A DNA stretch of 64,000 nt from Gammaproteobacteria bacterium (GTDB lineage Bacteria; Pseudomonadota; Gammaproteobacteria; Eutrophobiales; Eutrophobiaceae). Positions 1 to 15,530 of this stretch are shown piece after piece. The position numbers and the translations under genes are program-made. The stretch spans positions 12,923-76,922 of the forward strand of contig JAJFKM010000048.1 of the NCBI GenBank assembly GCA_021773215.1. Direction: 5' to 3'. Within the stretch, counting starts at the first letter, position 1; each line of letters begins with the position of its first letter. The notes below the pieces were generated by a model that was not told the origin of the DNA, ran no database searches, and saw only the letters and a program-made list of their open reading frames with translations.

Positions 1-727
1 TAATGCTTTTTATATATTTTTCTGTCGTTATTTGTGCTTTATCGAAACAAGTTATTTTTCCATTTTCTAACAATAATACTTTTTCACACAATGAATTTAT
101 CAATTGAAGATCATGCGACACAAAAATAAGTGTACCTCCATTTTCAACATATTCTTTCATCCAATTTATACATTTTATTTGAAACTCTAAATCGCCAACT
201 GAAAGAGCTTCATCAATAATTAATATGTCAGGTTTTAGTGAAATACATGAAGCAAACGCTACTCTTACCAGCATTCCTGAAGAATAGGATCCTACTGACT
301 GATCAATGTAATCGCCTATTGATGCGAACTCAATCATGTCTTGTAAATTATTTCTTATTTCTTTCTCTTTTAATCCATTCATTATGCCTTTGAGTATTAT
401 ATTTTCCCTTCCTGATAGTTCTGGATTAAAGTCAATGCCCAACTCCAAAATGGATGCTATGCTCCCGTTCACTTCAATATTACCTAACGTAGGTCTTTTA
501 ATTGAACTTATAATTTGTAATAACGTTGATTTTCCTGATCCATTTTTGCCAAGAAGACCTATTACATCACCTTTCTCAATTTCAAAATTAATATCACTGA
601 GTGCCCAATAGTCATCGTGATATTTTTTTCCAAACAGACTTACTGCTTCTTTTAACCTGTCTTTTTTAGAATTGAACAACCTATACTTCTTACTAATGTT
701 AGTAGCTTTTATAATTATATTATTCAT
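1..727 (-). CDS. wzt: ABC transporter ATP-binding protein (Wzt/TagH-like), C-terminus beyond window start
   Basis: I translated the reverse strand from the ATG at 727 by hand: MNNIIIKATNISKKYRLFNSKKDRLKEAVSLFGKKYHDDYWALSDINFEIEKGDVIGLLGKNGSGKSTLLQII... It has a Walker A (GKNGSGKST), an ABC signature (YSSGM) and a Walker B (ILIIDEALSVGD). It is not in the ORF track because it runs off the window. Confidence 0.85.
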   Translation of the reverse strand, partial: MNNIIIKATNISKKYRLFNSKKDRLKEAVSLFGKKYHDDYWALSDINFEIEKGDVIGLLGKNGSGKSTLLQIISSIKRPTLGNIEVNGSIASILELGIDFNPELSGRENIILKGIMNGLKEKEIRNNLQDMIEFASIGDYIDQSVGSYSSGMLVRVAFASCISLKPDILIIDEALSVGDLEFQIKCINWMKEYVENGGTLIFVSHDLQLINSLCEKVLLLENGKITCFDKAQITTEKYIKSI

Positions 728-735
728 CAATTTAA

Positions 736-1548
736 TTATATTGCGTCTGCAAACTCTGACTTTAATTTATTGAATACTATCGCACCGATGATAAATACAA
801 AAACATATACCGTAATATTTAATAAAGCATAATCATTAAAATAATTTACTGCATCTTGATACAGAAATGCATTCCTGTACCCATCCACAATATAAGTCAT
901 AGGGTTGTAGTTAATAATCCAACTATATTGATCCGGTATAATATTTTTATTCCAGACTATAGGTGTTGCCCAAAACCATGTATTTAGTAAGACTGGAACA
1001 AATTGACTAACATCTTTAAACAGGACATTGAGAGAAGAAAAAAACCAACTCAAACCTATCAAAAACAAACACAATATTAAAACATAATACAATATACTTA
1101 TGATTGTGAAATCTATATTAATATTATTAAAATATAAAATAATTAATAATATACACATATAAATCAATTGAGTTATAGCTGCGGTTAAAAGATAAACAAA
1201 TACTAATACTTCACTGGGGTATTGTGTTTTCTTTATCAAATGTAGATTTCCTCTAACACCATTAATGCTTGTGTTTAGTACTTCACTAAACATTAACCAT
1301 GGGATTAGACCTGAAACAAAATATGCAATGTATGGGATATCACCTGGAGTAGTTACTTTTAATCCTTTTGAGAATATCAACCAGTAAATCAATACGGTTA
1401 TAGTCGGGTTAACTATTGCCCATGTAATACCAATATATGTACCCGCATACCTTAATTTAAACTCTGTTTTCGCCATATAAATAATGGCATATTTTTGGCT
1501 ATAGATATTTTTAAAAAAGTTAATTATATTTTTCATTGAAGTTAACAC
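736..1548 (-). CDS. wzm: ABC-2 type polysaccharide exporter permease (Wzm/KpsM/TagG-like)
   Basis: 270-aa polytopic membrane protein with an N-terminal KTEFKLRYAGTYIGITWAIVNP motif typical of Wzm/TagG permeases. It is adjacent to the wzt ATPase, with an 8-bp gap. Confidence 0.85.
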   Translation of the reverse strand: MLTSMKNIINFFKNIYSQKYAIIYMAKTEFKLRYAGTYIGITWAIVNPTITVLIYWLIFSKGLKVTTPGDIPYIAYFVSGLIPWLMFSEVLNTSINGVRGNLHLIKKTQYPSEVLVFVYLLTAAITQLIYMCILLIILYFNNINIDFTIISILYYVLILCLFLIGLSWFFSSLNVLFKDVSQFVPVLLNTWFWATPIVWNKNIIPDQYSWIINYNPMTYIVDGYRNAFLYQDAVNYFNDYALLNITVYVFVFIIGAIVFNKLKSEFADAI

Positions 1549-1623: not shown

Positions 1624-2193
1624 TTAAAGATGTCCAGATTTAATACATGTGAGTAGAGTAGTTGCATCATAAATCAATCCATCATGTATAATTTTTTCTA
1701 TCTGTTCAAATGTAAACCATTCAAATTTCACATGCCCGAGTTCATCTTCATTTTGTAGACGTTGGTCGTTTGCAATATTTGCTATATATAGATTCACCTT
1801 CGCAGAAATAACACCAGGCTCAGGAGCAATTGTGCCTAAAGCTTTTATCATGTCTTTATCACATGTTAATCCCGTTTCTTCCATAAGCTCTCTAATTGCT
1901 GCATCTTTCGCTGTTTCATCTTTATCAATAAAACCCCTCGGAACTTCCCACCCATATTCTCCAATGGGGTGGCGATATATATGAATTAAGCCATATTTAT
2001 CTTTGTATTTTGGCAAAATTGCTACACCAGTAATGCCATCCCTATTTTTTTGTTTTGGTTCAACAACAAGATAATCTTGCACTAAGGATAATTCGCCATC
2101 TTTTAAATGATCAAAATTAATTTTGAATACACTGTTTTCACAAACAGTTTTCCTATTATTTAAAGTAAAGGGAGCTTCACCCATAGATTTCAA
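1624..2193 (-). CDS. Nudix hydrolase (GDP-sugar/NDP-sugar hydrolase-like)
   Basis: Nudix box GFIDKDETAKDAAIRELMEETGL (Gx5Ex7REUxEExGU pattern). It sits inside the sugar biosynthesis cluster. Confidence 0.75.
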   Translation of the reverse strand: MKSMGEAPFTLNNRKTVCENSVFKINFDHLKDGELSLVQDYLVVEPKQKNRDGITGVAILPKYKDKYGLIHIYRHPIGEYGWEVPRGFIDKDETAKDAAIRELMEETGLTCDKDMIKALGTIAPEPGVISAKVNLYIANIANDQRLQNEDELGHVKFEWFTFEQIEKIIHDGLIYDATTLLTCIKSGHL

Positions 2194-2201
2194 CTACCCT
2201 T

Positions 2202-3140
2202 TTACACATTACTGTATCCCGATTGTTTAATCATCTGATAGCCTTTAATAAGCTCCTGAATTCCATCGTCTAACGAAAACGTAGTTTTGAAACCAGTCTT
2301 TTCTATCTTTTCATTCGAAACAATATAATTTCTTTGATCAGGGTCCTTACCTAATTCTTCTTCAAGAAAAATAAATTCTGGTAAATATTTTTGTATTCTT
2401 TCACATAATTCTTTTTTTGATATATTCGTATCAGATAGTCCTACGTTATATATTTCACCCTTCATTGAATCAAAATTTTCAATCCCATGTATAAAAACAC
2501 GGGCCACATCCCTGACATGCAGATAATTTCGTTTAAAATGACTTTCAAATAAAACAACAAATCGGTCATTTACTGCTCGATAGACAAAGTCATTAACCAG
2601 TAAATCTAATCTCATTTTTATTGACATTCCAAACACTGTTGCCAACCTGAAACTAATTGCCTGTCCATGCTCGAGCAATGCCTTTTCTATTTCAACTTTC
2701 TCTATTGCATATTGCGATATTGGATTTAGTTCAGATTCTTCTGTGCAAAAATTATTTTCGTCACCACTACCGTATGCACTGTTTGTTGTGGGCATTAATA
2801 CTCTTTGCTGTTTTGAAAGTAATTTCAGCATTAATTTGATGCCATCCTTATTAACCGTACTGGCACCTACTGGATCTTTTGAACAGATTGGAGCACCTAC
2901 ATAAGCAGCAAGCGGGATAATAAGATCTGACTTTGCCATTAAAGGCTTAATAACTTCTTGCAATCTAATATCACCATTTATCACATTGAAATTCTTGTGA
3001 TTACATTGATGCGCCAGACTATTTTGCTTGTACATAAAATTATCCAACACAGTGATATGGTGGCCCTGTTTTAATAGTTCTGGCACCATGATAGAACCAA
3101 TATAACCTGCTCCTCCTGTGACTAGGATGTTATAACTCAT
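2202..3140 (-). CDS. NAD(P)-dependent sugar epimerase/dehydratase/reductase (extended SDR)
   Basis: N-terminal Rossmann motif ILVTGGAGYIGS and a 312-aa length typical of UDP-/GDP-sugar epimerases or 4-reductases. Confidence 0.8.
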   Translation of the reverse strand: MSYNILVTGGAGYIGSIMVPELLKQGHHITVLDNFMYKQNSLAHQCNHKNFNVINGDIRLQEVIKPLMAKSDLIIPLAAYVGAPICSKDPVGASTVNKDGIKLMLKLLSKQQRVLMPTTNSAYGSGDENNFCTEESELNPISQYAIEKVEIEKALLEHGQAISFRLATVFGMSIKMRLDLLVNDFVYRAVNDRFVVLFESHFKRNYLHVRDVARVFIHGIENFDSMKGEIYNVGLSDTNISKKELCERIQKYLPEFIFLEEELGKDPDQRNYIVSNEKIEKTGFKTTFSLDDGIQELIKGYQMIKQSGYSNV

Positions 3141-3142
3141 GC

Positions 3143-3889
3143 TTATTGTGCTCCTGTACTAATTAGTAAATCATCACTTAAAAACGTTTGTGCTTTATGA
3201 AAATCATCAGGAATACCAATGTCGATAAAGTCTCCATCATCCATAAATCCACAAACATCATGAGTAGAGATGATTGTTGGCAAAATGTCATTCTCAAGAG
3301 ATATACTTTTATTCATGGCATCAGGCCACTCACTAAATAATTCTGAATTTATAATGTATACACCACCATTGATTTCCCCTGGTTCCTCTTTTTCATTTGG
3401 CTGTTCTATTGTGATTAACCTACCAGTCTCATTAACACACATGCGGTGATATCTTCCTGCATTTTCTACCTGTCGTAACGACAAGGACAAGTTAGCCTTT
3501 GAACTAGAATGTAATTTATACATTCGTTCTGGGTCTATCAAAAATAATGTGTCTCCATTAATAAGGAAGAAATCTTTTTCCAGACAGTTTTCATTTAATA
3601 CCTTTAAGAGCGCACCACCTGTACCCAATGGTTTGTCCTCAATGGCATATGTAATTGGTATGCCTTTAAATGTTGAACCAAAATGGTCTATTATTTGTTG
3701 ATGTTTATAACCTACTGATATAATGAAATGACATGCATTATTTTTTATCCAATACGACAATAAATACTCTAGGAAAGGCCTGCTTCGAACAGAAGCCAAA
3801 GGTTTTGGAACGTCATTAACTACTTTCTGTAGTCGTGAGCCTATGCCACCGGCTAGTACGACTACTGTATATCCGGATTTAGTTTCCAT
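3143..3889 (-). CDS. Sugar-1-phosphate nucleotidyltransferase (HddC/GDP-heptose or NDP-hexose pyrophosphorylase-like)
   Basis: N-terminal VVLAGGIGSRLQ...PKPL motif of the NTP_transferase family; 248 aa. Confidence 0.8.
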   Translation of the reverse strand: METKSGYTVVVLAGGIGSRLQKVVNDVPKPLASVRSRPFLEYLLSYWIKNNACHFIISVGYKHQQIIDHFGSTFKGIPITYAIEDKPLGTGGALLKVLNENCLEKDFFLINGDTLFLIDPERMYKLHSSSKANLSLSLRQVENAGRYHRMCVNETGRLITIEQPNEKEEPGEINGGVYIINSELFSEWPDAMNKSISLENDILPTIISTHDVCGFMDDGDFIDIGIPDDFHKAQTFLSDDLLISTGAQ

Positions 3890-3891
3890 CG

Positions 3892-5058
3892 TTACTTAAC
3901 GACACGATCAACTACTGAATGAAAAAACCTTAATTCTTTCTCAATATCTCGTGGATGGTTTCCTACAAAAAATCCTCTGTCATGTGCAATATTGGCGTTA
4001 TCTAGATTGTCTACTATTTCATAATCGAAATACTTAATGACGTCATGCCTAGGGAAACAACCGCCTGTTATTATTCGAAACTGTATATTTTCTTTTCTCA
4101 AGTGTTCAAGGCAATCCCTTCTATCTGTCTTAACTTCAGAACTTAAAATAACAGTGAAAGAAAACCAACTACTCTTCCCATTTTCTTTTTGGATAATAAA
4201 CCTCTGGTCATTATCAAATAATTCAACAAATAGTTCGGCATTTTTACGCCGCGTTTCAATCAAACTATCCAGTTTTTCTAGTTGCTTTAATCCGATTGCG
4301 CCAGACATTTCTAGCGGCCGCGCGTTATAACCTGGAAGAATAAATCTGTAAGCTTCAAAAAAATCATCATCGGATTTATCGTATATCAATGACCCTTCCG
4401 GTACATCACGAGACCATCCATGTGCCCTAATTGATCTCATAAGATGATACAGTTCTTCATTATCTGTAATGATTAAACCACCTTCCATGGTAGAAATGTG
4501 ATGAGAAAAAAAAGTACTGAATGTGCCTATGTCACCAAAAGTACCGGTATATTGGTCATTAATGCTGGCTCCCATAGATTCACAATTATCTTCAAAGAGA
4601 ATTAAGTCGTGTTTGTTACAAAACTTTCTGAGTTTTTCTAGTTCTGCTGGATTCCCAAGAATACTTACCGCCATCACCATTCTTGTTTTTGGTGTTAATG
4701 CTTCCTCTAATTTTGATACATCAATATTCAATGTATTGAGATCGATATCTACAAACTTCAACTTCAGGCCATATTGCTGTAATGGAGTGAAACTTGTTGC
4801 CCACGATATAGCAGGGACAATAACCTCATCTCCACGTTGCAAAGGTTTGTTTGATTTATAAAAAAGTGCCGCAACACTAACAAGGTTCGCCATAGAACCA
4901 GAGCTGACCATTAGACAGTGCTGGCAATTGAATTTTCTAGCGAATGCAGCTTCAAACTCGCTTACCTTTTCACCCATAGTAAAGCGACCACTCTCTACGA
5001 CTTGTTTAATCGCATCAATTTCTTCAGTTCCCCATGAGTCGCTAGCTAATTCGTACAT
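3892..5058 (-). CDS. PLP-dependent sugar aminotransferase/dehydratase (DegT/DnrJ/EryC1/StrS family)
   Basis: 388 aa with N-terminal WGTEEIDAIKQVVESGRFTMGEKVSEFEAAFA, typical of DegT/ArnB/RfbH-type enzymes acting on NDP-4-keto sugars. Confidence 0.8.
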   Translation of the reverse strand: MYELASDSWGTEEIDAIKQVVESGRFTMGEKVSEFEAAFARKFNCQHCLMVSSGSMANLVSVAALFYKSNKPLQRGDEVIVPAISWATSFTPLQQYGLKLKFVDIDLNTLNIDVSKLEEALTPKTRMVMAVSILGNPAELEKLRKFCNKHDLILFEDNCESMGASINDQYTGTFGDIGTFSTFFSHHISTMEGGLIITDNEELYHLMRSIRAHGWSRDVPEGSLIYDKSDDDFFEAYRFILPGYNARPLEMSGAIGLKQLEKLDSLIETRRKNAELFVELFDNDQRFIIQKENGKSSWFSFTVILSSEVKTDRRDCLEHLRKENIQFRIITGGCFPRHDVIKYFDYEIVDNLDNANIAHDRGFFVGNHPRDIEKELRFFHSVVDRVVK

Positions 5059-5076
5059 TTTATTTCCAATAGATTG

Positions 5077-6126
5077 TTATTTATCGTTTGAAATTGTTAA
5101 TTTAATTGCGTCTGCAATTTTTTCACTCGTTGGGTAGTAATATTGCTCTAATGTAAAGCCCGCTGGTGTTGGCGAATCAGGCAGTCCTACTCTACGGACA
5201 GGTGCTTTTAGATATTCAAATGCCTTCTCCGCAACGAGGCATCCCACTTCAGCACATACACCGCCCATAGCCCACCCGGTATCTACGACTAATATTCGTC
5301 CTGTCTTTTTAACTGATTCAATAATAATCTTTTCATCGAGTGGCTTGATAGTTCTAAGATCTATTACATCCGCTGTAACACCCTCCTCAGCTAAACTATC
5401 AAGTGCTATTTGTGCTAATGCAATAGCATGTGATGAACCAACGATTGTCAAGTCTTCGCCTCTAGTACGGTAAATTCCTTCACCTATAGGTATTTTATAG
5501 ATCCCTTCAGGTACATATCCGTTCTGTTTCATTAACCACCGGTGTTCAAAAATTACTACAGGATTGTTATCCGCAATCGCAGACAACATTAAACCTTTTG
5601 CATCATAGGGTGTGCTTGGCATGATAATCTTTAAACCAGGGACGGATAAAAGTAAACCTTGAACCGCTTGTGAGTGTTGCGCACCTGAACCCCAGCCACG
5701 TCCGATCGCAGACCAAATAACCATAGGAACATTCGTATGTCCTTCGTCCATGTAATGCATTTTCGAAGCATGATTCACGAGTTGATTAAATGTTAATAGC
5801 AAAAAATCTGGTCTATTATGCAAATAGACTGGTCGCATACCATTCATCGCAGCACCGGCACACATTCCTGTCATTCCCTCCTCGGATAAAGGAGTATCGA
5901 ATACACGTTCTTCACTAAATTTTTTGTACAAGTCTGTCGTTACCCCAAACATACCAATCGGGTCATTGACGCCTTGACCTAGAATAAAGGCCTTCTTATC
6001 GAGCTCAAGTGCTAAATCAAGTGCTTCATGCAAAGCATCTGTGTATGACAAGTGCCTTTCATTACTATCTGCTAAATTTTCAGAATTATTAGTTTGTGTA
6101 TTTAAAAATGCTTCTGCCCAGGGCAT
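5077..6126 (-). CDS. TPP-dependent 2-oxoacid dehydrogenase E1 component, beta subunit-like (transketolase C-terminal fold)
   Basis: 349 aa; motifs EEGMTGMCAGAAMNGMRP and GLKIIMPSTPYDAKGLM typical of PDH/acetoin dehydrogenase E1 beta. Confidence 0.8.
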   Translation of the reverse strand: MPWAEAFLNTQTNNSENLADSNERHLSYTDALHEALDLALELDKKAFILGQGVNDPIGMFGVTTDLYKKFSEERVFDTPLSEEGMTGMCAGAAMNGMRPVYLHNRPDFLLLTFNQLVNHASKMHYMDEGHTNVPMVIWSAIGRGWGSGAQHSQAVQGLLLSVPGLKIIMPSTPYDAKGLMLSAIADNNPVVIFEHRWLMKQNGYVPEGIYKIPIGEGIYRTRGEDLTIVGSSHAIALAQIALDSLAEEGVTADVIDLRTIKPLDEKIIIESVKKTGRILVVDTGWAMGGVCAEVGCLVAEKAFEYLKAPVRRVGLPDSPTPAGFTLEQYYYPTSEKIADAIKLTISNDK

Positions 6127-6144
6127 GACTATTTTCCTTGGTAA

Positions 6145-7167
6145 TTAATCTGCGTATACGTGTTGCATCAGACTATCTTCTGATGGATTCGGACTACTGA
6201 CAGCGTGATGAAAAGCTTCATCAATCTCAAGCTGCGTCCTATTTTGGAAATCATTAATTGTATTTTCATCAATTAAATTATGATTTTTCATTTCATTTTG
6301 AAGAGTGTGAATCGGGCATATATTCTGCCAACTATCAACCTCATCAAGTCCTCGATATCCTGATTTACTGTCATCGCCCGCACCACCATGCCCACGCAAT
6401 CTATAAGCTACATTTTCAATAAATGTAGGCCCTCCTCCATTTCTAGCTTTTTCAGCGGCTTCCAATACAGTTTCATAGACGAGCAAAAGGTTAGTTGCAT
6501 CTATTTGTTTAGCTTCGATGCCAAAACCTGCCGCTTTGTCAAAGAGCTCAACTGATGCAGGTTGCCGCTTATCAAGAGGTGTACAAACTGAATAAAAATT
6601 ATTTTCACAGAGATATATAATCGGTAATTTTTTTAATATCGCAAAATTAAGTGACTCCCAAAAGGCACCCTCTTCCATTGCGGCATCACCAAAGAACACA
6701 CCTATGACACGGCCTTCATTCTTCATCTTAGAAGCCATCGCTGCACCATTAGCAATCGGCACTATCCCAGAAACTATTGCGGAGGTACTCATCATGCCTA
6801 CACTCTTATCTATCAAGTGCATTGAGCCTCCACGAGAACCACAACAACCATTTGCACGACAAAATAATTCTGACATCATCGCCTTCAGATCACCGCCTTT
6901 TGCCAGATAGTTCCCATGTGTACGATGGCTGCTATAAATATGATCTGTCACTTTAAGAGCAGCACACGCACCAACTGATGTTGCTTCTTGGCCAATCACC
7001 AAATGAATTGGTGATTTCATCTGGTCTTCATGATATTTGGATTCGATCGTTTCCTCTATCATTCTAATTCTTATCATTGAGAATAAGAGATTTAGCAGTA
7101 ATTCTTTAGAATACTTATTGATATCAGTATTCGAATATCCTTGCCCTTTGTATTTGTATTTAACCAT
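6145..7167 (-). CDS. TPP-dependent 2-oxoacid dehydrogenase E1 component, alpha subunit-like
   Basis: 340 aa; motifs SHRTHGNYLAKGGD and GDAAMEEGAFWESLNFA (TPP-binding GDG-like region) as in PDH/AcoA E1 alpha. It is paired with the E1 beta gene. Confidence 0.8.
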   Translation of the reverse strand: MVKYKYKGQGYSNTDINKYSKELLLNLLFSMIRIRMIEETIESKYHEDQMKSPIHLVIGQEATSVGACAALKVTDHIYSSHRTHGNYLAKGGDLKAMMSELFCRANGCCGSRGGSMHLIDKSVGMMSTSAIVSGIVPIANGAAMASKMKNEGRVIGVFFGDAAMEEGAFWESLNFAILKKLPIIYLCENNFYSVCTPLDKRQPASVELFDKAAGFGIEAKQIDATNLLLVYETVLEAAEKARNGGGPTFIENVAYRLRGHGGAGDDSKSGYRGLDEVDSWQNICPIHTLQNEMKNHNLIDENTINDFQNRTQLEIDEAFHHAVSSPNPSEDSLMQHVYAD

Positions 7168-8186
7168 TAGGACACCCCGGAAACTTTTCCGTTAACTTTA
7201 TCGGGTTTATAGTAAACAATTCGTGAACCTTCTCTTTCAAAACTAAAAGGTACATAAATCAATTTGTTGAGTTTTTCTTTAACTATTTTTTGTTTTTCTT
7301 TTGGAACATAAAATAAAATAAATCCACCGCCACCTGCACCAAGTAATTTCCCACCTATAGCACCAGCATTTTTTGCAACTTTGTAAATTTCATCGATATA
7401 CTCAGTGCTGACCCCGTCGGATAAAATTTTCTTAAGTTTCCATGTTTCATCAAGTAGAAGGCCAAAATCATCTAAAAAACCAGAACCTGAATTTAATATT
7501 TTTATTGCATCATCAACATGGCTATAAATTTCTCTTAATTCTTGCACTCGATTATTGATATTTTCAATTTTTTTCTTTTCAATTTCTGAAGCTGTTCTTG
7601 AAATGCCGGTGAAAAACAACATCAAGTTTTCTTGTAAATGATGAATGCGCTCACTTGAAACCACCATTGGTTTTACAGCATGCGTCCCATCAGCATTAAA
7701 AACTATATGGTTAAGTCCTCCGTGTGCTACCGCTAGTTGATCTTGTGACCCTACATTTTCTTTAATTATATTTTGTTCTACGTGTATTGCTTCATCACCC
7801 AACTCTTCAGATGACTTGTATTTACCTTTTAAAGCATAAATTGAATTAAGTAAACCCACTGTAAAAGACGAGCTTGACCCTAAGCCCGATCTAGCAGGCA
7901 AGTCACCATCATGATGAATTTCCAAGCCTTGATCACATTTTAATTCTTCTAATATTGCCTTTACAGAAGGATGTTTAATTTCAGAGTAATGCTGAACATT
8001 CTCAATTAATGAATAAACAATCCTATATTTGTGCTGGAAAAATGGGGGAAGATAACGACAACTAATATAACAATATTTATCTATGGCACTCGATAATACT
8101 TGCCCACCATTCTCCAAATACCAATCGGGCAAGTCGGTGCCGCCACCAAAAAATGACACTCTAAATGGTGTTTTGCTAATAATCAT
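7167..8186 (-). CDS. GHMP-family sugar kinase (HddA/heptose-7-P kinase or galacto/fucokinase-like)
   Basis: N-terminal PFRVSFFGGGTDLPDWY matches GHMP sugar kinases of the HddA type. The GHMP ATP motif is GLGSSSSFTVGLL. Its start overlaps the E1 alpha stop. Confidence 0.75.
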   Translation of the reverse strand: MIISKTPFRVSFFGGGTDLPDWYLENGGQVLSSAIDKYCYISCRYLPPFFQHKYRIVYSLIENVQHYSEIKHPSVKAILEELKCDQGLEIHHDGDLPARSGLGSSSSFTVGLLNSIYALKGKYKSSEELGDEAIHVEQNIIKENVGSQDQLAVAHGGLNHIVFNADGTHAVKPMVVSSERIHHLQENLMLFFTGISRTASEIEKKKIENINNRVQELREIYSHVDDAIKILNSGSGFLDDFGLLLDETWKLKKILSDGVSTEYIDEIYKVAKNAGAIGGKLLGAGGGGFILFYVPKEKQKIVKEKLNKLIYVPFSFEREGSRIVYYKPDKVNGKVSGVS

Positions 8187-9688
8187 TTATATAGCGCCCG
8201 TGCTAATTTAACTTCAACCATGTTTTGAACATGGCTATAAACATCATCGCCAAATTTAGTCTTCACCAGATCTAGATAACGTTTATTTGTGAAATACTTT
8301 GTAAACGCCTCATCTCGAAACTTTAGGACTTCTGCTGCGGATATATGTTCTGTTGGTAATGGCTGAGTTTCATAACTATGCTGCGAATAACCAATCCAGT
8401 TATCAGGCAACTTCCATTCTTGTTTCTTAGCGTACAGATACAATGGAGAACCAGGATATGCCATGGCTGAATAAAAATTGGCAAATTCGCAATTTGCTTC
8501 AATTGCCATGTCCAAAGTCTCTTGCATTGTATTTAAATCATCATCCGGCAATCCAAAAATATAATTGCCAATAACATTAATATTTGCGTCTTTAATCTTT
8601 CCAATAATGTTCAGAATATCACTTGTCCCAAAACGACCTTTTTCCACACCATCACGAACATGTTTACTAGCAGACTCTATTCCTAATGCTAACCATCTGA
8701 TGCCAGCTGCTCGTAGACTCTCCAGATATTCATCTTTAATAGTATCAATTCGAGCATACGCCCAAATATTAAGATCATACCCTCGATCTATTATTCTTTC
8801 GCATATCCCAAGCACATGATTTTTATTCAGCACAAACATTTCATCAACAATTTTTATATTTTTTATACCGTAATCATTAACCAGAATATCAATTTGACCT
8901 ATAATGTTATCGGGCGACCACATTCGATATGATGACTTACCAAATGGGGCATTAATACAGCAGAAGCTACAATGATAGGGACAACCAAGACTCGTATGTA
9001 TTGATGCATAAGGTTGCCTATGGTTGATATCTTCAAAACAGTGCCAATTGTGTGCCCTATACTTTTCCATTGGCAATAGATCAAGTGCAGGTTCTGGCAT
9101 GGCACTATCCAAATCAGAAATCAATTGTCCCGGCTTCGTAAACTTTATTTTATTATTATCGTAATAATAAAGACTAGGAACATCAGAAAAACCAGCATTA
9201 TTATTCAAATTTTCCATTACCTGAAAAATTGTCTCAGGCCCTTCACCACTACAAACAAAATCAACATCTTCTTCTCTCAATGTTTGTTCTGGCAATGCAG
9301 CGGGATGTGTACCTGTCATTAATATCTTAGTATCAGGCAATAATTTTTTAATTGCTGTGCAGGTAACACTTGCAGCAGGCATATTCTGTGTCGAAGCAGA
9401 AGGCTGGTATCCATACACAACCATAACAATCAAGACAGGATTAAAATGCTTTGATATGATTTCAGCAACTTGTTCCGGGGATAAGCCAAATGCAGGAGCA
9501 TCTATAATATCGACAGACGCTTTTTTATTTCTCATATAACTTGCAAACAACGCAATTAAACTAGGTGTTTCAATTGCAGAAAGATTTGATGCTAGATTCT
9601 GATATACAGCATGCAAATTCCCGGGATTAATGAAGACAATATCGATGTCTTCACGGTCTTTTATTGTTAATTCATCTAGTGTCTTCAT
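8183..9688 (-). CDS. Cobalamin-binding radical SAM enzyme (class B radical SAM, probable C-methyltransferase)
   Basis: 501 aa. N-terminal B12-binding-like domain (DIVFINPG...) followed by CxxxCxxC (SLGCPYHCSFCC). Its stop overlaps the GHMP kinase start by 4 bp. Confidence 0.75.
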   Translation of the reverse strand: MKTLDELTIKDREDIDIVFINPGNLHAVYQNLASNLSAIETPSLIALFASYMRNKKASVDIIDAPAFGLSPEQVAEIISKHFNPVLIVMVVYGYQPSASTQNMPAASVTCTAIKKLLPDTKILMTGTHPAALPEQTLREEDVDFVCSGEGPETIFQVMENLNNNAGFSDVPSLYYYDNNKIKFTKPGQLISDLDSAMPEPALDLLPMEKYRAHNWHCFEDINHRQPYASIHTSLGCPYHCSFCCINAPFGKSSYRMWSPDNIIGQIDILVNDYGIKNIKIVDEMFVLNKNHVLGICERIIDRGYDLNIWAYARIDTIKDEYLESLRAAGIRWLALGIESASKHVRDGVEKGRFGTSDILNIIGKIKDANINVIGNYIFGLPDDDLNTMQETLDMAIEANCEFANFYSAMAYPGSPLYLYAKKQEWKLPDNWIGYSQHSYETQPLPTEHISAAEVLKFRDEAFTKYFTNKRYLDLVKTKFGDDVYSHVQNMVEVKLARALYK

Positions 9689-9689
9689 C

Positions 9690-10739
9690 TTAGTAGGCTA
9701 TTGAGTCAATTTTATTTCTTCTAAACATATTATAGGTTTTAGATACAAACATACCGAACGCCGTCTTTATCATAAAAAAGTGTCCTGCGAACCTTACGAA
9801 ATATTTAATTCTTATAATTAATGGGAGCCCTTTATCTCCAAGGAAATTATCGTGAAACCACCTGCAACAATTTAAATAATTCTTATGCCTATCACTTAAT
9901 GTATAAGTATCATTAATTAATGGCACTTCAGTATTTTCAATAATTGATTGCAACCGTGCTGCCTGCAACTCTCTCAAGTCACGTAATGAAATAAACGCAA
10001 AATCATCATGGCAGTCAGTTCGTTGAAAAGATTCGTTATTATCATGGTGTGAATTTAACTTTAGGTGCGTAAATTTAATATCAGCTAAATAGATTATTCT
10101 TTCGTAGGATTTATTTACCAATCTCTTAAACACATCCATTAAATGTGTGTCAATGAACAATCGTTTATATAATGGTGGGTACGGATAGACCAATGCTTCA
10201 CATGTTTTACGCGATAAAATAGGGAAAGTACTTAATTTGTCCTGATTAAACCCATCATTAGGATAAGCAAGGTATATCTCATCATCAATTTTATCTATTT
10301 CTTTTATTAATAATTTATCCCAGTTACTGGTTTCTATAATGACATCATCATTTATCAACATTATAATGTTTCCAGAACAGTATCGATAGCAAACAGAATT
10401 ATATTGCCCCATAGTTAATCTTGGACCGATTATTTTTAATATGCTTACATCCTCGTTCACAAATTCACGAGTTGATGAATCATCGTCATCCACGTAAATT
10501 ACCACTTCAATATATTCTAGATTACACGACTTTCTAATCAGGCTTTGAAACAATCTATCCAGATGTTCTATTCTATTTCTTGTTGGTAACAATAATGAAA
10601 TTTTTATTTTCTTATCTTTTTTATAATTATGTCTTTCGATAAGAAGATCCAAACTGTCATAATCAGATATATCGGCAAGCTTATCTTTCAGATTATTTTT
10701 ATCATGATAATTTGATTTTGAATTCAACATTAATAGCAC
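9690..10739 (-). CDS. Glycosyltransferase (GT-A fold, family 2-like)
   Basis: KISLLLPTRNRIEHLDRLFQSL followed by the acidic cluster YVDDDD; 349 aa. Confidence 0.6.
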   Translation of the reverse strand: MLLMLNSKSNYHDKNNLKDKLADISDYDSLDLLIERHNYKKDKKIKISLLLPTRNRIEHLDRLFQSLIRKSCNLEYIEVVIYVDDDDSSTREFVNEDVSILKIIGPRLTMGQYNSVCYRYCSGNIIMLINDDVIIETSNWDKLLIKEIDKIDDEIYLAYPNDGFNQDKLSTFPILSRKTCEALVYPYPPLYKRLFIDTHLMDVFKRLVNKSYERIIYLADIKFTHLKLNSHHDNNESFQRTDCHDDFAFISLRDLRELQAARLQSIIENTEVPLINDTYTLSDRHKNYLNCCRWFHDNFLGDKGLPLIIRIKYFVRFAGHFFMIKTAFGMFVSKTYNMFRRNKIDSIAY

Positions 10740-10754
10740 CTAAGCATTTTTCTC

Positions 10755-11330
10755 TTATCTCTTTTCCCAAAGGATTAATTGAGTACGTTGTTCTAATTGT
10801 GGCTTGAGATTCTTATATTCTTCTAATGTTAAGCATAGTGTTCGTATCTTTCTTTCAATATATTTTTCAGTTTTATCAACTAAATCTTCAAGGTTAGCAG
10901 TATCAATATCACCAACGAGAACCAAATCAATCAATCCAGTGTCTTTTCCCTGAGCATAGTCATCAATCAAAAATGCTTGCTTTAAATTTCCCAATCGCTC
11001 CAGAATGCTTTCAAGGATCTGGTCCATGCCGAGTGCTTTTTTTACCATGGAATGTAATTCAGGAAATAACGCGTGGTCATTATTTGCCTGATAATAGATA
11101 TTCCTACCTTTTTTATGGCATGAGATCAGATCAGCATCGCAGAGTTGTCGCAGCTCTTCCGACACCTGACTTGATGAAATGTTAAATTCATTTGAGAGTT
11201 CTCTAAGATAAGCTTGCTGCTCATAATTCAAGAATAATCTCATAAGAATTTTGATTCTGGTTTTTGATGTAATTAAACCGGAAAAGATAGACACATATCC
11301 ACCACTAGTTCGTTCTGTATTTAAGAACAA
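10755..11330 (-). CDS. Winged helix-turn-helix transcriptional regulator (ArsR-like N-terminus) with uncharacterized C-terminal domain
   Basis: N-terminal IKILMRL...YLRELSNEFNISSSQVSEELRQLCDADLI resembles an ArsR/HTH_20 DNA-binding domain; 191 aa. It is embedded between GT genes. Confidence 0.5.
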   Translation of the reverse strand: MFLNTERTSGGYVSIFSGLITSKTRIKILMRLFLNYEQQAYLRELSNEFNISSSQVSEELRQLCDADLISCHKKGRNIYYQANNDHALFPELHSMVKKALGMDQILESILERLGNLKQAFLIDDYAQGKDTGLIDLVLVGDIDTANLEDLVDKTEKYIERKIRTLCLTLEEYKNLKPQLEQRTQLILWEKR

Positions 11331-12739: not shown

Positions 12740-13651
12740 TCAATTATCATCTTTCTGATTTTTACTATAAATCAGAAAAGTAATTTGTTCCGATAATAAA
12801 CCTATCAAAAAAACAAGAATTGAAGTCAAGAACAATAAAGCACTCATATTAGTAAATCTTTCAAGGTAATAATATGTGTAGGCATAATAGCTAAGTCCTG
12901 TAATAAAAACGGCAAAACTAGCAGGACCAAATATTTTGAGCGGAGAGTATAATGCAGTGATTCTAAAAATTATCAATAAAAATCTAATCCCATCTTTTAC
13001 TAATTTAATGTGACTAGTACCAGTTCGTTTCTCGCAACTGATTGGAACATATTTAATGCTGTATCCAGATCGAAAAAAAGCCATAGTAATGGTTGTTGGA
13101 TAAGAAAAACCATTCGGCAATAAATATAAAAAGTTTTTAAACATATTTGCTTTCACAGCTCTAAAGCCAGAAGTTAAATCAAGTATTTTATGTCCTGACA
13201 TATAACTGGCTAGCTTATTATAAAACAGATTAGCTATATACCTTGGAAAGCTCGTTTGAGATTTCTTATTCCGAGCGCCAATAACCATATCGTTTCCATT
13301 GTCAATTTCAGCAAGAAATTTTTTAATGTCTTCTGGCGAGTGCTGACCATCTGCATCCATAAAAACCAATATGTCACCAGTTGCCGTGCGCGCACCTGCT
13401 TTTATCGCTGCACCATTTCCTTTTGAATACGGATGGCTAATTACTTTTACAGCATGACTATTACAAATCTCGATTGTGTCATCTTCGGAACCATCATTGA
13501 CAACTAGGATTTCTGCTTCTGGACAACAAGCACGTATTCGAGGCAATAATTTATTTAATGATTCTCCCTCATTTTTTGCTGGCAAGATAATACTGACTGA
13601 TGTTTCCATTTTTATAGAATCATTCATTTTCCTGAATAGGTCTTTGTTCAA
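12740..13651 (-). CDS. Polyprenyl-phosphate sugar transferase (GT2, ArnC/GtrB/DPM1-like)
   Basis: VSIILPAKNEGESL...ILVVNDGSEDDT...VFMDADGQH are hallmark ArnC/DPM1 motifs. It has C-terminal TM helices and overlaps the downstream-upstream GT-C gene by 32 bp. Confidence 0.8.
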   Translation of the reverse strand: MNKDLFRKMNDSIKMETSVSIILPAKNEGESLNKLLPRIRACCPEAEILVVNDGSEDDTIEICNSHAVKVISHPYSKGNGAAIKAGARTATGDILVFMDADGQHSPEDIKKFLAEIDNGNDMVIGARNKKSQTSFPRYIANLFYNKLASYMSGHKILDLTSGFRAVKANMFKNFLYLLPNGFSYPTTITMAFFRSGYSIKYVPISCEKRTGTSHIKLVKDGIRFLLIIFRITALYSPLKIFGPASFAVFITGLSYYAYTYYYLERFTNMSALLFLTSILVFLIGLLSEQITFLIYSKNQKDDN

Positions 13652-15530
13652 TCATTGAAATTTGCTCTATTAATTTATTGTAAACCCAACTATTTCCTTG
13701 CTGCTCAAAACTATACAACAACTCGTTTTTTCTTATTTCAGCCTCACTAGCTTTACCTAAACTAGATAATATCTTTATTTCTCTAATCTTCTTTTCAATA
13801 CTGGGATATAAATTATCTGATAAACGTAAGTATTCTAAGGCTTTTATGAAATTACCGCTAAATATTTCAAGTCCTGATAAATAATCATAAAATTGTGCAT
13901 GGTTAACATTGTCATATTTATGATTATTTATCAGGTGATTTATTAAGTTTTTTAATTTTTCTACATCAATTATCGGGCATTTATTTTTAAGTACTTGCAA
14001 TGTCAGATTATCAAGAACAACGACAACATTAAACCCAGTTGGAATACTCACATCTGCAATATTATAGAATTCATTCCAATCTTCATCAACGCTCCTCAAG
14101 CCCCTTATACAATTATCCAGTTTTATCTGCTCAGCATAGGGGTAGAATGATTTGGGACTAAGTTTTTTTAAATCCTCAATAATCAGTCGGGCTTGTTCAT
14201 GATCTTTATTTATTTTCAGATTATAAAGATCAGTTTTAGCTCTGATAGAATCAGGTTGATTTCTGGCCCATTCATTTATTTGTAATGCAGGTTTCGACCA
14301 AAGATCTACCTCGATCACTGTAATAGCTAATATCAAACCGCAATACATGAAAGCTGTTAAAATAATCCATAGACGATGCTTGACTATTGTGGACAAATAA
14401 ATAAAGCCACAGGAAATGCCTAATATTAGGCTAAAGGAAGGTAGGTAATTCCTATGTTCAAAATAAGGTTCCAGATTCAAATAGGTCGATTCAAGCAAAT
14501 GTCCACCCAGAAACCAAAGTATTGCAAAACTATATATAGGCTGCGACTTTCTTTTTATCAAGGCTGTTGTGAGTAGCGTCAACAATATAATCCCACTTAA
14601 CATAAACCTACTCGAATAAATACTCCTTACGATTTCATAATTATCATGATACAAACTGAATGAAGATGGACTTGGTAATAGAATATTCTTTATGTATTCA
14701 GCCAAAACAACAACTTCAGTAAGTATTTTTTCTATAACTCCATAATCCTTAAAAGCATAACCATATAGATTCGCCTCGAATTTAAATGCAAGATAAATAA
14801 TCAATAGCGTTAATGGCGATATCAAGAAAAACATTGTCCAATGAGACCAGTATTTTGGTCTCTGCAAATGCATCAGGATCGTTATTTCCAAAGATAAAAT
14901 ATAAATCAGTAAAAGGATTCCATTTTCTTTACATAGAATCGCCAACGCTGTAAAAAATAAAATTAATCCGCCAGTGAGACAATCTTTATATAAACTCTGT
15001 CTGTCTGCATGTTTTAACCTCATGAGGAGATAGGTCAAAACACCGAGTAACATAAAAAACGTAGACAATAATGTCATCCGTTGAATCACATACAAGGTCG
15101 TTGTTAACTGAATAGGGTGCAGCAACCACAAGCCTGTGACAATTATTGGGATGTACTTTCGAAATGTGCCCTCTTTAAATAATATAGTTAGATAAGCACT
15201 GATAATGTAGATCAAACATCCATTTAGAAGATGAATGCCCAGATTAACTAACTTAAAATCAAACGGCGCACTAGGCCAACTTTCATGTTGTAAGGCGAAC
15301 GTTACTAAAGATAATGGCCTACCAGAAGGTCCTGCAATATCGGTAGCAAATATAAAATAAGGAAACCCATAAGTCTTTATGGTGTCCAAATCACGCAAAT
15401 TAGAAAAATCATCTAGTAAAAAACGACTATCCAATCCTGGCCAATAGATCAATGTTGTTAGCATCAATAAGCAAAGCAACATCATAAACTGCCAACGATT
15501 AATAGTTGGTTTTTCTTTAATCATTATCAT
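13620..15530 (-). CDS. GT-C fold membrane glycosyltransferase with C-terminal TPR-like domain (PMT/ArnT/TfpW-like)
   Basis: 636 aa with about 11 predicted TM segments. There is an acidic LLDDFSN motif in the first extracytoplasmic loop and a C-terminal soluble region of about 200 aa with TPR-like repeats. It lies immediately downstream of pilA. Confidence 0.65.
   Translation of the reverse strand: MIMIKEKPTINRWQFMMLLCLLMLTTLIYWPGLDSRFLLDDFSNLRDLDTIKTYGFPYFIFATDIAGPSGRPLSLVTFALQHESWPSAPFDFKLVNLGIHLLNGCLIYIISAYLTILFKEGTFRKYIPIIVTGLWLLHPIQLTTTLYVIQRMTLLSTFFMLLGVLTYLLMRLKHADRQSLYKDCLTGGLILFFTALAILCKENGILLLIYILSLEITILMHLQRPKYWSHWTMFFLISPLTLLIIYLAFKFEANLYGYAFKDYGVIEKILTEVVVLAEYIKNILLPSPSSFSLYHDNYEIVRSIYSSRFMLSGIILLTLLTTALIKRKSQPIYSFAILWFLGGHLLESTYLNLEPYFEHRNYLPSFSLILGISCGFIYLSTIVKHRLWIILTAFMYCGLILAITVIEVDLWSKPALQINEWARNQPDSIRAKTDLYNLKINKDHEQARLIIEDLKKLSPKSFYPYAEQIKLDNCIRGLRSVDEDWNEFYNIADVSIPTGFNVVVVLDNLTLQVLKNKCPIIDVEKLKNLINHLINNHKYDNVNHAQFYDYLSGLEIFSGNFIKALEYLRLSDNLYPSIEKKIREIKILSSLGKASEAEIRKNELLYSFEQQGNSWVYNKLIEQISMIEQRPIQENE

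Follow-up and report, generated by a model that had tools for sequence, protein, structure and literature searches.

Gene Content and Organization of the Locus

Eight open reading frames on the minus strand fill positions 1624–9688 of the window, the 64-kb stretch of DNA analyzed here, and the limits of this block are exactly those given in the first-pass annotation (Table 1). The radical SAM gene comes first in the order of transcription, and the successive junctions measure -4, -1, 18, 18, 2, 2, and 8 nt. No strong terminator-like site was found inside the block. The domains of all eight gene products were confirmed by a Pfam search, and the catalytic motifs (the radical SAM Cys motif, the ThDP motif, the Nudix box, and the GGAGYIG and Y144xxxK motifs) are intact. 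The genes are co-directional and either overlap or are separated by at most 18 nt, and the operon-like nucleotide-sugar pathway previously described is supported.

The transcription unit probably extends beyond these limits. The GT2-family glycosyltransferase gene is probably carried by the same transcript as the radical SAM gene, and in loci L005, L006, L021, L022, and L033, GT2 homologs are likewise located upstream of the radical SAM gene. The ArsR-type HTH gene lies 15 nt further upstream, and a 63% identical homolog of its product occupies the same position in locus L021. On the other side, wzm is located 75 nt downstream of the block and is followed by the gene of the Wzt-type ATPase, which is truncated by the edge of the window; the wzm/wzt and pilin neighborhood matches its earlier description.

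Table 1. Features of the cassette and of the adjoining genes (positions in the window).
Feature	Position	Strand	Length (aa)	Evidence
Wzt-type ABC ATPase (context)	1..730	-		Walker A GKNGSGKST, minus strand ~520-548
Wzm-type ABC-2 permease, wzm (context: glycan export)	736..1548	-		Pfam ABC2_membrane
Nudix hydrolase, NDP-sugar/ADP-ribose pyrophosphatase type (accessory)	1624..2193	-	189	Pfam NUDIX; Nudix box intact
Cj1427-like NAD-dependent GDP-heptose C4-dehydrogenase	2202..3140	-	312	Pfam Epimerase; GGAGYIG, Y144xxxK
Sugar-1-phosphate nucleotidyltransferase, HddC-like	3143..3889	-	248	Pfam NTP_transferase; GGIGSRL motif
ColD-type PMP-dependent GDP-4-keto-sugar 3-dehydratase	3892..5058	-	388	Pfam DegT_DnrJ_EryC1
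ThDP-dependent E1 beta subunit	5077..6126	-	349	Pfam Transket_pyr and Transketolase_C
ThDP-dependent E1 alpha subunit, αKADH2 type	6145..7167	-	340	Pfam E1_dh, 219.9 bits; GDA-x26-NN motif
GHMP anomeric sugar kinase, HddA-like	7167..8186	-	339	Pfam GHMP_kinases_N and GHMP_kinases_C
Cobalamin-type (class B) radical SAM enzyme	8183..9688	-	501	Pfam B12-binding, 44.8 bits; Radical_SAM, 57.9 bits
GT2-family glycosyltransferase	9690..10739	-		Pfam Glycos_transf_2; stop 1 nt before radical SAM start
ArsR-type HTH protein (context, inside the glycan gene block)	10755..11330	-		Pfam HTH_5

Distribution and Assignment of the Cassette Enzymes

The same gene set is present in hundreds of bacterial species belonging to many phyla. 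Since it was found again, frequently in the same order, in dozens of unrelated genomes, the gene arrangement is not due to chance. Co-occurrence was counted in 37 full loci from many phyla, each containing the radical SAM gene and no less than 8 kb to either side of it. The most frequent partner was a ThDP enzyme (34 loci), followed by a Cj1427-like SDR (33), the kinase (32), a lysine-less ColD-type dehydratase (31), and the nucleotidyltransferase (29), and all five partners occurred together in 27 loci. In most loci, the kinase gene comes directly after that of the radical SAM enzyme. No published characterization of the eight-gene set was found in the literature.

The kinase and the nucleotidyltransferase had been described as HddA/HddC-like, and these two families are indeed their top NCBIfam matches, with scores far below the equivalog cutoffs (134 bits for HddA, where the cutoff is 600, and 162 bits for HddC, where it is 300). 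The PDB matches of the kinase are the heptose kinases 3k85 and 4n3o and WcbL (4usk), with E-values of about 1e-30 to 1e-33, and those of the nucleotidyltransferase, which is probably GTP-dependent, are 5xhw and 6jq8 (E 2e-31). The similarity of this pair to HddA/HddC therefore points to a GDP-heptose route. The salvage-like supply of the sugar proposed in the first-pass annotation has to be abandoned, since a GmhB gene (193 bits, above the cutoff of 178) and a GmhA-like gene are present in related loci, which indicates de novo synthesis from sedoheptulose-7-phosphate. Neither GmhA nor GmhB is encoded within the 64-kb window.

The SDR, previously regarded as a generic tailoring enzyme, is more specifically a Cj1427-like C4-dehydrogenase: residues 1-311 of both proteins align in the match with PDB 6vo6 (373 bits, E 8.5e-111), a structure with a generic title which we take to be that of the GDP-heptose C4-dehydrogenase Cj1427. 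In 10 of the 37 full loci, the SDR homolog adjoins a gene encoding an L-2-hydroxyglutarate oxidase (LhgO; 349 bits, above the cutoff of 299), which would recycle the by-product of Cj1427-type enzymes. Cj1427 oxidizes GDP-heptose at C4 with α-ketoglutarate, forming L-2-hydroxyglutarate, and yields GDP-3-deoxy-4-keto-heptose in vitro when combined with a C3-dehydratase (PMC10680097).

The DegT-fold protein had been taken to be a PLP aminotransferase contributing the amine of a highly modified amino sugar, produced by a salvage-type route and also bearing a two-carbon branch, a C-methyl group, or both. Its DegT/DnrJ/EryC1 Pfam match and the layout of the kinase and nucleotidyltransferase genes fit that reading, but the protein matches the ColD/WbdK structures 2gms and 3gr9, with 439 bits and an E-value of 1.5e-130 to E. 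coli ColD, and it carries S185-H-H at the site of the Schiff-base (PLP) lysine, which is thus replaced by His. All the cassette-linked DegT-fold homologs examined lack the lysine, having His, Gln, or Met there, whereas unrelated flanking DegT genes have kept it. The enzyme is therefore a ColD-type 3-dehydratase and a 3-deoxy sugar is predicted rather than an amino sugar; the lysine replacement contradicts the amino-sugar reading at the sequence level and, with the de novo supply indicated by GmhA and GmhB, makes it very improbable. Since the lysine is missing throughout, 3-deoxygenation appears to be universal in these cassettes, as in yersiniose synthesis, where it precedes the YerE step.

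As regards the ThDP-dependent pair, the E1 alpha subunit matches human pyruvate dehydrogenase (PDH) E1α with 153 bits, and the E1 beta subunit is 60-72% identical to its cassette homologs. The top NCBIfam matches of the pair are PDH E1α and E1β (290 and 288 bits), as might be expected if the pair were simply the E1 of a pyruvate or acetoin dehydrogenase that lay by chance inside a glycan cluster. However, both scores are under the curated cutoffs, and no E2 or E3 gene was found in the block, nearby, or among the recurrent neighbors of related loci. In addition, the pair accompanies the cassette through many phyla, and the form of the ThDP enzyme varies from one locus to another (E1αβ, fused E1, split transketolase, or mini E1-like PP/PYR pair). 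A catabolic E1 is hardly credible in view of these substitutions, and the sugar-branching function previously suggested is upheld. Branching of keto-sugars at C3 or C4 has been shown for E1αβ enzymes of the αKADH2 type and proposed for split transketolases (PMC12247030).

The NUDIX domain of the last gene product was confirmed, but its place in the pathway is that of an accessory part: the protein shows weak matches to ADP-sugar pyrophosphatases, and homologs of the window type are present in only 5 of the 37 full loci, a second Nudix type occurring in a few others. This enzyme would probably hydrolyze stray GDP-sugar intermediates. Its start codon may be the ATG at 2184 instead of the TTG at 2193.

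Proposed Pathway and Role of the Radical SAM Enzyme

We consider it fairly likely that the block is a cassette for a GDP-activated heptose-derived sugar which is 3-deoxygenated, branched with a two-carbon unit, and then modified by the B12-type radical SAM enzyme. [quoted passage not shown] C4 would then be oxidized by the Cj1427-like SDR, the bound NADH being reoxidized by α-ketoglutarate (step 2), and the ColD-like enzyme would remove the 3-OH with glutamate, releasing α-ketoglutarate, to give GDP-3-deoxy-4-keto-heptose (step 3). These three steps are predicted on the basis of close homology and gene context. Analogy and context suggest that in step 4 the E1αβ pair would decarboxylate pyruvate and transfer the C2 unit onto the C4 ketone, yielding a 4-C-acetyl tertiary alcohol by chemistry like that of YerE and the αKADH2 enzymes; C4 is the putative addition site by analogy only. 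Lastly, we infer that the branched intermediate is transformed by the radical SAM enzyme (step 5). The glycan would be built by the neighboring GT2 and GT4 enzymes and exported by Wzm/Wzt. The genome of Azospirillum lipoferum 4B, in which the radical SAM, kinase, and Nudix genes are present but no ThDP enzyme is encoded nearby, counts against this pathway.

The radical SAM enzyme carries the motif C236xxxC240xxC243 and has homologs of 54-86% identity across many phyla. Its top NCBIfam matches are HpnJ (157 bits, cutoff 578) and BchE (146 bits, cutoff 481), the models of which align across its B12-binding plus radical SAM architecture; since neither score comes near its family cutoff, the enzyme belongs to a separate, uncurated family. 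AprD4 is the top PDB sequence match (55 bits), with a family score of 74 bits, and the fold resembles those of TsrM, AprD4, OxsB, MgmA, and TokK, the fold search not discriminating between reactions. Our preferred guess is that this enzyme would abstract H from C7 and close the C7–C8 bond onto the acetyl carbonyl, giving a caryose-type nonose with a fused cyclopentane. This ring closure is put forward tentatively, as a possibility rather than a likelihood. The cyclase idea is supported by HpnJ being the top match, and the formation of cyclopentanes from sugars has been linked to HpnJ and Cds, both of them radical SAM enzymes (PMC9092360). There is no spare ketoreductase in the window, and the cyclization would need none.

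We rate C-methylation as about equally likely. The same 4-C-acetyl route would be followed, and a C-methyltransferase like GenK or Fom3 would act at C7, C6, or the acetyl branch, giving a ten-carbon, C-methylated, acetyl-branched 3-deoxyheptose. Most of the characterized B12-type (class B) radical SAM enzymes are methyltransferases, as the first-pass annotation assumed in the present case, and the B12-binding domain, the class B fold, and the presence of the methylases TsrM, MgmA, and TokK among the nearest solved structures make this reading plausible, although we hold it at less than even. The top curated-family matches, however, are the non-methylases HpnJ and BchE; a ketone would remain, yet the window contains no reductase; and methylation of the side chain would not require the near-obligate linkage with a ThDP enzyme and a 3-dehydratase, which methylation of the branch would fit. 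To our knowledge, no natural sugar shows this pattern, which also counts against methylation.

Alternatively, the radical SAM enzyme might come first in the pathway and dehydrate the C6–C7 diol of the heptose in the manner of AprD4, and the ThDP enzyme might lengthen the resulting side-chain aldehyde or ketone by two carbons to a linear nonose; the 4-keto group would then serve for 3-deoxygenation only. AprD4 is both the top PDB sequence match and a leading fold match, and aldehydes are readily taken by ThDP enzymes (PMC12247030). We regard this order of events as improbable, since the AprD4 family score is less than half that of HpnJ, the 4-keto group would be left unreduced with no C4 reductase in the window, and the succession of a ColD-type step and a ThDP step is that of the yersiniose route, in which the ketone serves as acceptor.

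Comparison with Known Systems

The closest parallels to the early steps are the capsular GDP-heptose pathways of Campylobacter jejuni, which share with the cassette an HddA-like kinase and HddC-like nucleotidyltransferase, a close Cj1427 homolog (in our case at 373 bits), and a 3-dehydratase, that of the cassette being of the ColD type and that of C. jejuni the HS:5 C3-dehydratase. Those pathways end with epimerases and C4-reductases, both of which are absent from the cassette; the fact that they are replaced by a ThDP enzyme together with a B12-radical SAM enzyme suggests that the 4-keto intermediate is used here for C–C bond formation. In the yersiniose A route, E1/E3 3-deoxygenation is followed by ThDP branching by YerE and reduction by YerF (PMC9306805). 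The resemblance lies in the 4-keto sugar, its 3-deoxygenation by a lysine-less PMP enzyme, and the subsequent ThDP-dependent transfer of a C2 unit from pyruvate onto the ketone at C4 (PMC9306805), whereas yersiniose A synthesis uses a CDP-hexose, an acetolactate-synthase-like enzyme of the YerE type, and a reductase, and the cassette uses a GDP-heptose and E1αβ, has no reductase in the window, and includes an extra radical SAM step.

Branching enzymes of the same classes, for which the same keto-sugar reaction is proposed, occur in actinomycete antibiotic pathways: αKADH2 (E1αβ) in those of aldgamycin, avilamycin, and kibdelomycin (KbDH-α/β), and transketolases in those of miharamycin and amipurimycin. 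The likeness is one of enzyme class, and the E1αβ and split-transketolase classes interchange across the cassette variants. According to a 2025 review, αKADH2 and transketolase branching enzymes are known from secondary-metabolite clusters, the transketolase examples all coming from Streptomycetes (PMC12247030). In the cassettes, by contrast, such enzymes are encoded in surface-glycan loci, both in Proteobacteria and in many other phyla.

Caryose is a 4,8-cyclo-3,9-dideoxy-nonose, the biosynthesis of which is stated to be unknown (PMC9092360). Its carbon skeleton corresponds to a heptose plus a C2 unit, and it is 3-deoxygenated; C4 bears a tertiary alcohol and is bridged to C7 by a methyl carbinol. 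This is the outcome expected of steps 1-4 followed by C7–C8 closure; the likeness is in chemistry only. Judging from its name, caryose would need inversion of C5 relative to D-manno-heptose, and no epimerase gene for this purpose is present in the window. No Trinickia caryophylli proteins occur among the best 120 matches of two homolog searches, which is weak negative evidence. Homopolymers, of which caryan is one, are the typical cargo of ABC-transporter routes, and wzm/wzt are located beside the cassette. As for the radical SAM enzyme, HpnJ and BchE resemble it in combining B12-binding and radical SAM domains, and these two enzymes and calditol synthase (Cds) are linked to carbocycles, their substrates being lipids or tetrapyrroles and not nucleotide sugars.

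Organization of the eight-gene block and its surroundings

The eight co-directional genes read as a single block in the first-pass annotation (window 1624–9688) were all recovered, along with every Pfam domain named there, and the catalytic motifs of their products are intact. The junctions measure -4, -1, 18, 18, 2, 2, and 8 nt in transcription order, and a terminator scan detected no strong terminator-like site within the block, the sole convincing one in the scan being located after the pilin gene. A GT2 gene ends 1 nt ahead of the radical SAM start and is itself preceded by genes for an ArsR-type HTH protein, a GT4 enzyme, and a second GT2 enzyme; the transcription unit probably starts further upstream than the eight genes and runs on past them into the export genes. 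The genes for Wzm and a Wzt-type ATPase lie downstream, in line with the Wzm/Wzt export of an unusual sugar that had been proposed, and the rest of the window is ordinary Gram-negative chromosome (pilSR, sucC, nadE, clpB, pilB, secA, and the dcw cluster).

Features of the window discussed in the text
Feature	Position in the window	Strand	Order of transcription in the block
Radical SAM gene	8183-9688	minus	first
GHMP kinase gene	7167-8186	minus	second
E1alpha gene	6145-7167	minus	third
E1beta gene	5077-6126	minus	fourth
DegT-fold protein gene	3892-5058	minus	fifth
Nucleotidyltransferase gene	3143-3889	minus	sixth
SDR gene	2202-3140	minus	seventh
Nudix gene	1624-2193	minus	eighth
ArsR-type HTH gene	10755-11330	minus	
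636-aa ORF	13620-15530	minus	
Terminator-like site	15616-15585		
Three genes between pilA and pilR	16412-21629	minus	

The ArsR-type HTH protein, which is encoded within the glycosyltransferase/sugar gene block, has a 63% identical homologue at the same position (~8435) in L021, a related locus of an unrelated gammaproteobacterial genome, and may be a dedicated regulator. The 636-aa ORF, which immediately follows the pilin gene and its terminator, combines an N-terminal part of about nine transmembrane segments with a C-terminal half that is soluble, and has no match in Pfam or NCBIfam; from its position and shape, we presume, as a guess, that it encodes a pilin glycosyltransferase of the GT-C type, comparable to TfpW. 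Three further genes, located between pilA and pilR, appear to make up another protein-glycosylation module, distinct from the first: they encode a TMEM260-like protein of the O-mannosyltransferase type (665 aa), a protein with a spermine-synthase-like domain (664 aa), and a GT2-GtrA polyprenyl-phosphate glycosyltransferase.

Enzymes conserved in the related loci

ORFs were called in 84 loci around radical SAM homologues in other genomes, clustered, and mapped back by tblastn, and co-occurrence was counted in the 37 loci extending at least 8 kb on each side of the radical SAM gene (the full loci). The ThDP enzyme (the E1αβ pair or its stand-in) was found in 34 of these, the Cj1427-like SDR in 33, the HddA-like kinase in 32, the ColD-type protein in 31, and the nucleotidyltransferase in 29, all five occurring together in 27. 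A UXS-like SDR, which is absent from the window, is present in 25/37 loci, and a Nudix gene of the window's type in 5/37. On plasmid p6 of Azospirillum lipoferum 4B (L085, 12681-17373), the set comprises no more than a GDP-fucose-synthase-like gene, a Nudix gene, and the genes for the radical SAM enzyme and the kinase.

The heptose-type activation previously proposed appears to hold in outline. HddA is the best curated family for the kinase (134 bits vs. a cutoff of 600) and HddC for the nucleotidyltransferase (162 bits vs. 300), and in the PDB the top matches are likewise heptose kinases and HddC, respectively. The salvage-like route, on the other hand, is not supported: GmhB and GmhA homologs occur in 14 and 9 of the 37 full loci, and the fact that GmhB scores above its cutoff and that GmhA is the best match of its family supports a de novo origin of the heptose. 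Neither the GmhA isomerase nor the GmhB phosphatase was found within the 64-kb window; both are presumably encoded elsewhere in the source genome. The Nudix protein carries the box GX5EX7REUXEEXGU (GFIDKDETAKDAAIRELMEETGL at residue 87), and its closest structures, with weak scores, are ADP-sugar and ADP-ribose pyrophosphatases.

A different origin of the sugar, from 5-deoxyribose or 5'-deoxyadenosine, had been suggested by two Gemmatimonadaceae contigs (L003, 201-7169; L004, 90-6821), in which genes for a phosphorylase of the purine/MTA type, a phosphoribosyltransferase, an MtnA-like isomerase, and a fusion of a class II aldolase with an SDR come after the radical SAM homologue, the upstream side being cut by the contig end. 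The arrangement resembles a shunt for 5'-deoxyadenosine/MTA salvage located next to an enzyme with a high demand for SAM. The idea was dropped because the homology to GmhA, GmhB, HddA, HddC, and Cj1427 points to a heptose; more likely, the salvage genes just recycle the by-product of the radical SAM enzyme.

The DegT-fold protein aligns essentially end to end (residues 2-382) with residues 6-388 of the solved PMP-dependent GDP-4-keto-6-deoxymannose-3-dehydratase ColD/WbdK (439 bits, E 1.5e-130). In this alignment, the catalytic lysine which forms the internal aldimine in DegT/DnrJ/EryC1 aminotransferases is absent from the window protein and replaced by His: S185-H-H is aligned with the SHH of 2gms, in which His188 of ColD occupies the position of the Schiff-base lysine. 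By these residues, the protein is predicted to be a ColD-type 3-dehydratase and not an aminotransferase, and the amino sugar that had been expected from a DegT aminotransferase has been abandoned. None of the cassette-linked DegT-fold genes encodes the lysine (the motifs are SHH or AHH, GHQ, and AHM, with His, Gln, or Met); unrelated DegT genes in the flanks of the related loci have kept it. The fact that the lysine is missing throughout suggests that 3-deoxygenation is constant to the system and that transamination plays no part in it.

The SDR, in which the Rossmann motif GGAGYIG and Y144xxxK are present, aligns over residues 1-311 of each protein with PDB 6vo6 (373 bits), which we take to be Cj1427 of Campylobacter jejuni. 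A gene for LhgO adjoins the Cj1427-like SDR homologue in 10 of the 37 full loci, and its score (349 bits vs. a cutoff of 299) is that of a bona fide L-2-hydroxyglutarate oxidase. In Cj1427, the tightly bound NADH is reoxidized by α-ketoglutarate with release of L-2-hydroxyglutarate (PMC10680097); an oxidase of this kind would serve to recycle the unusual by-product that a Cj1427-type dehydrogenase releases, and its position lends indirect support to α-ketoglutarate-dependent ping-pong turnover of the SDR.

The E1 pair contains the E1_dh, Transket_pyr, and Transketolase_C domains and the GDA-x26-NN ThDP motif, and resembles PDH E1alpha-beta with a score below the curated cutoff. E2 and E3 partners were sought; neither the block nor the set of recurrent neighbors in the related loci includes a gene for either, which agrees with the non-catabolic role assigned to the pair earlier. 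Heteromeric E1α/E1β enzymes acting without E2/E3 in a keto-sugar pathway make up the αKADH2 group (AviB1/B2, AlmDI/DII, and KbDH-α/β), which the window pair matches in its domains and its context, being flanked by enzymes predicted to form a 4-keto sugar. The type of ThDP enzyme varies with the locus: in place of E1αβ there may be a fused E1, a split transketolase, or a two-protein mini form (about 200 + 180 aa) with E1-like PP and PYR domains. A 2025 review named αKADH2 (E1αβ), split transketolases, and YerE-like enzymes as the classes with a demonstrated or proposed role in the acyl branching of keto-sugars, the first two having been known solely from the secondary metabolism of actinomycetes (PMC12247030). 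The recurrence of the ThDP enzyme and the interchange between E1αβ and transketolase support, in outline, the two-carbon branching by the E1 pair put forward in the first-pass annotation.

Several variants of this enzyme were observed. The mini two-gene forms of L020 (12606-13758) and L030 (13648-14793), with about 200 and 180-190 aa, consist of just an E1α-like PP and an E1β-like PYR domain in place of E1αβ or transketolase, and may be a minimal carboligase. On plasmid p5 of Azospirillum argentinense Az39 (L086, 9153-18038), split transketolase genes occur beside the radical SAM gene with genes for a second cobalamin-dependent protein and a methyltransferase, and IS elements lie around them. 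The transketolase variant of the cassette in marine Alphaproteobacteria (L049, L051, L052, L056, L063, L065, L070, and L074) is flanked by genes for an IlvD/Edd-type dehydratase, a 3-hydroxyisobutyrate-dehydrogenase-like protein, and a D-2-hydroxyacid dehydrogenase, the products of which may supply the ThDP enzyme with a hydroxylated keto acid as its donor.

The radical SAM family and the proposed pathway

The radical SAM protein consists of an N-terminal B12-binding domain (PF02310) and a radical SAM core (PF04055), with a CxxxCxxC motif at 236-243 that is invariant in 16 homologues. Its best curated matches are HpnJ (157 bits vs. a cutoff of 578) and BchE (146 vs. 481), scores which place it outside both families as far as sequence can tell, and no curated model for its own family was found in NCBIfam release 20 (June 2026). 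The closest solved relative is AprD4 (55 bits). The fold matches TsrM, OxsB, and TokK; the predicted structure (pLDDT 71), compared with the PDB using Foldseek, gave the generic class B fold alone, with no pointer to function, and neither sequence nor fold separates a methylase from a cyclase or a dehydratase.

The family is widespread. The best 120 database matches are 65-100% identical to the protein and nearly all generically named, and a genome scan confirmed relatives in at least 583 species-representative genomes. The best 80 of these (54-83% identical) belong to the Gamma-, Beta-, Alpha-, and Zetaproteobacteria, Legionellales, a Coxiella-like endosymbiont, Simkania, Bdellovibrionales, Omnitrophota, Patescibacteria, Saccharibacteria, Cyanobacteria, Poribacteria, Planctomycetota, Elusimicrobiota, and Verrucomicrobiales; among the matches listed, identity amounts to 54-86% across groups including Proteobacteria, Legionellales, Chlamydiae, Cyanobacteria, Planctomycetota, Omnitrophota, and Patescibacteria. 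Among the cultured carriers of the cassette are Herbaspirillum lusitanum, Herbaspirillum sp. DW155, Niveibacterium sp. 24ML, Azospirillum spp., and Simkania negevensis. In the 0.99-Mb genome of the Coxiella-like endosymbiont strain 580 (L036, 9020-13431), the SDR and radical SAM genes are intact, and what follows consists of short gene pieces, giving the impression that the remaining cassette is decaying. The O-antigen region of Coxiella burnetii was considered because of this locus, and the accessible parts of the literature found on it mention no radical SAM or E1 gene.

With the enzymes of C. jejuni, the C4 oxidation and C3 deoxygenation of GDP-heptose have been performed in vitro, the 3-deoxy-4-keto product being reported at m/z 616.08 in negative mode (PMC10680097). 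These steps would balance, since the dehydratase frees one α-ketoglutarate per turnover (from glutamate) and the dehydrogenase uses one. In the fourth step, by analogy, E1αβ would decarboxylate pyruvate and transfer the resulting two-carbon unit to the ketone at C4, as YerE does after 3-deoxygenation by E1/E3 in the synthesis of yersiniose (PMC9306805) and αKADH2 enzymes do in the acyl branching of antibiotic sugars (PMC12247030). In the fifth step, the radical SAM enzyme would work on the branched intermediate, as is suggested by the near-obligate association of its gene with those of the ThDP enzyme and the dehydratase.

In the favored form of this step, hydrogen would be abstracted from C7 and the C7-C8 bond closed, giving a cyclopentane fused to the pyranose. 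The cassette would then make a caryose-type carbocyclic higher sugar by closing this ring after C4 acetylation of GDP-3-deoxy-4-keto-heptose, a proposal which we regard as tentative and rather doubtful. The skeleton of caryose, the biosynthesis of which was called unknown in a 2022 review (PMC9092360), corresponds exactly to a heptose plus C2 that is deoxygenated at C3, carries a tertiary alcohol at C4, and is bridged from C4 to C7 by a methyl carbinol, and joining C7-H to the acetyl carbonyl requires activating an unactivated C-H bond. Ring closure requires no branch ketoreductase, and none is present in the window; the closest curated families, those of HpnJ and BchE, are associated with ring formation and not with methylation. 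Several points argue against cyclization: caryose, according to our reading of its name, needs an inversion at C5, and, as a weak negative, no Trinickia-named protein (Trinickia caryophylli being the producer of caryose) occurs among the best 120 matches of protein searches seeded with Burkholderiales sequences. In addition, the fold search does not discriminate, and most known class B enzymes are methylases. The C-methylation of the first-pass annotation is a quite possible reading of this step, although short of an even chance. Other chemistry, neither cyclization nor methylation, accounts for the remaining probability. Erwiniose and caryophyllose were rejected as products because YerE-like enzymes, which use long keto acids as donors and a CDP-3,6-dideoxy-4-keto-hexose as substrate, account for both sugars (PMC9306805).

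Implications and comparison with known pathways

If cyclization does occur, the chemistry would be categorically new, with a new type of radical SAM reaction on nucleotide sugars; the biosynthesis of caryose would be identified, with a template for that of bradyrhizose, and carbocyclic sugars, obtained so far from one or two cultured species, would be made by hundreds of mostly uncultured species belonging to more than 10 phyla. If the general reading of the cassette is true, E1- and transketolase-type sugar branching would extend from actinomycete antibiotics to the surface glycans of many bacteria, a concrete and testable route to carbocyclic or higher-carbon sugars would be available, and hundreds of mis-annotated genes, currently labeled "pyruvate dehydrogenase E1", "aminotransferase", or "Mg-protoporphyrin cyclase", would be given names. 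Judging from their scores and motifs, the cassette proteins do not appear to be members of the HpnJ, BchE, PDH-E1, or aminotransferase families.

No description of the cassette was found in the literature, nor any curated model. Each enzyme type is known; it is the combination of GDP-heptose, C4 oxidation, C3 deoxygenation, ThDP branching, and a B12-radical SAM step of which no description was found. The front end of the cassette resembles the GDP-heptose pathways of C. jejuni and its middle part the yersiniose and αKADH2 branching pathways, and the terminal radical SAM step has no known precedent for nucleotide sugars.
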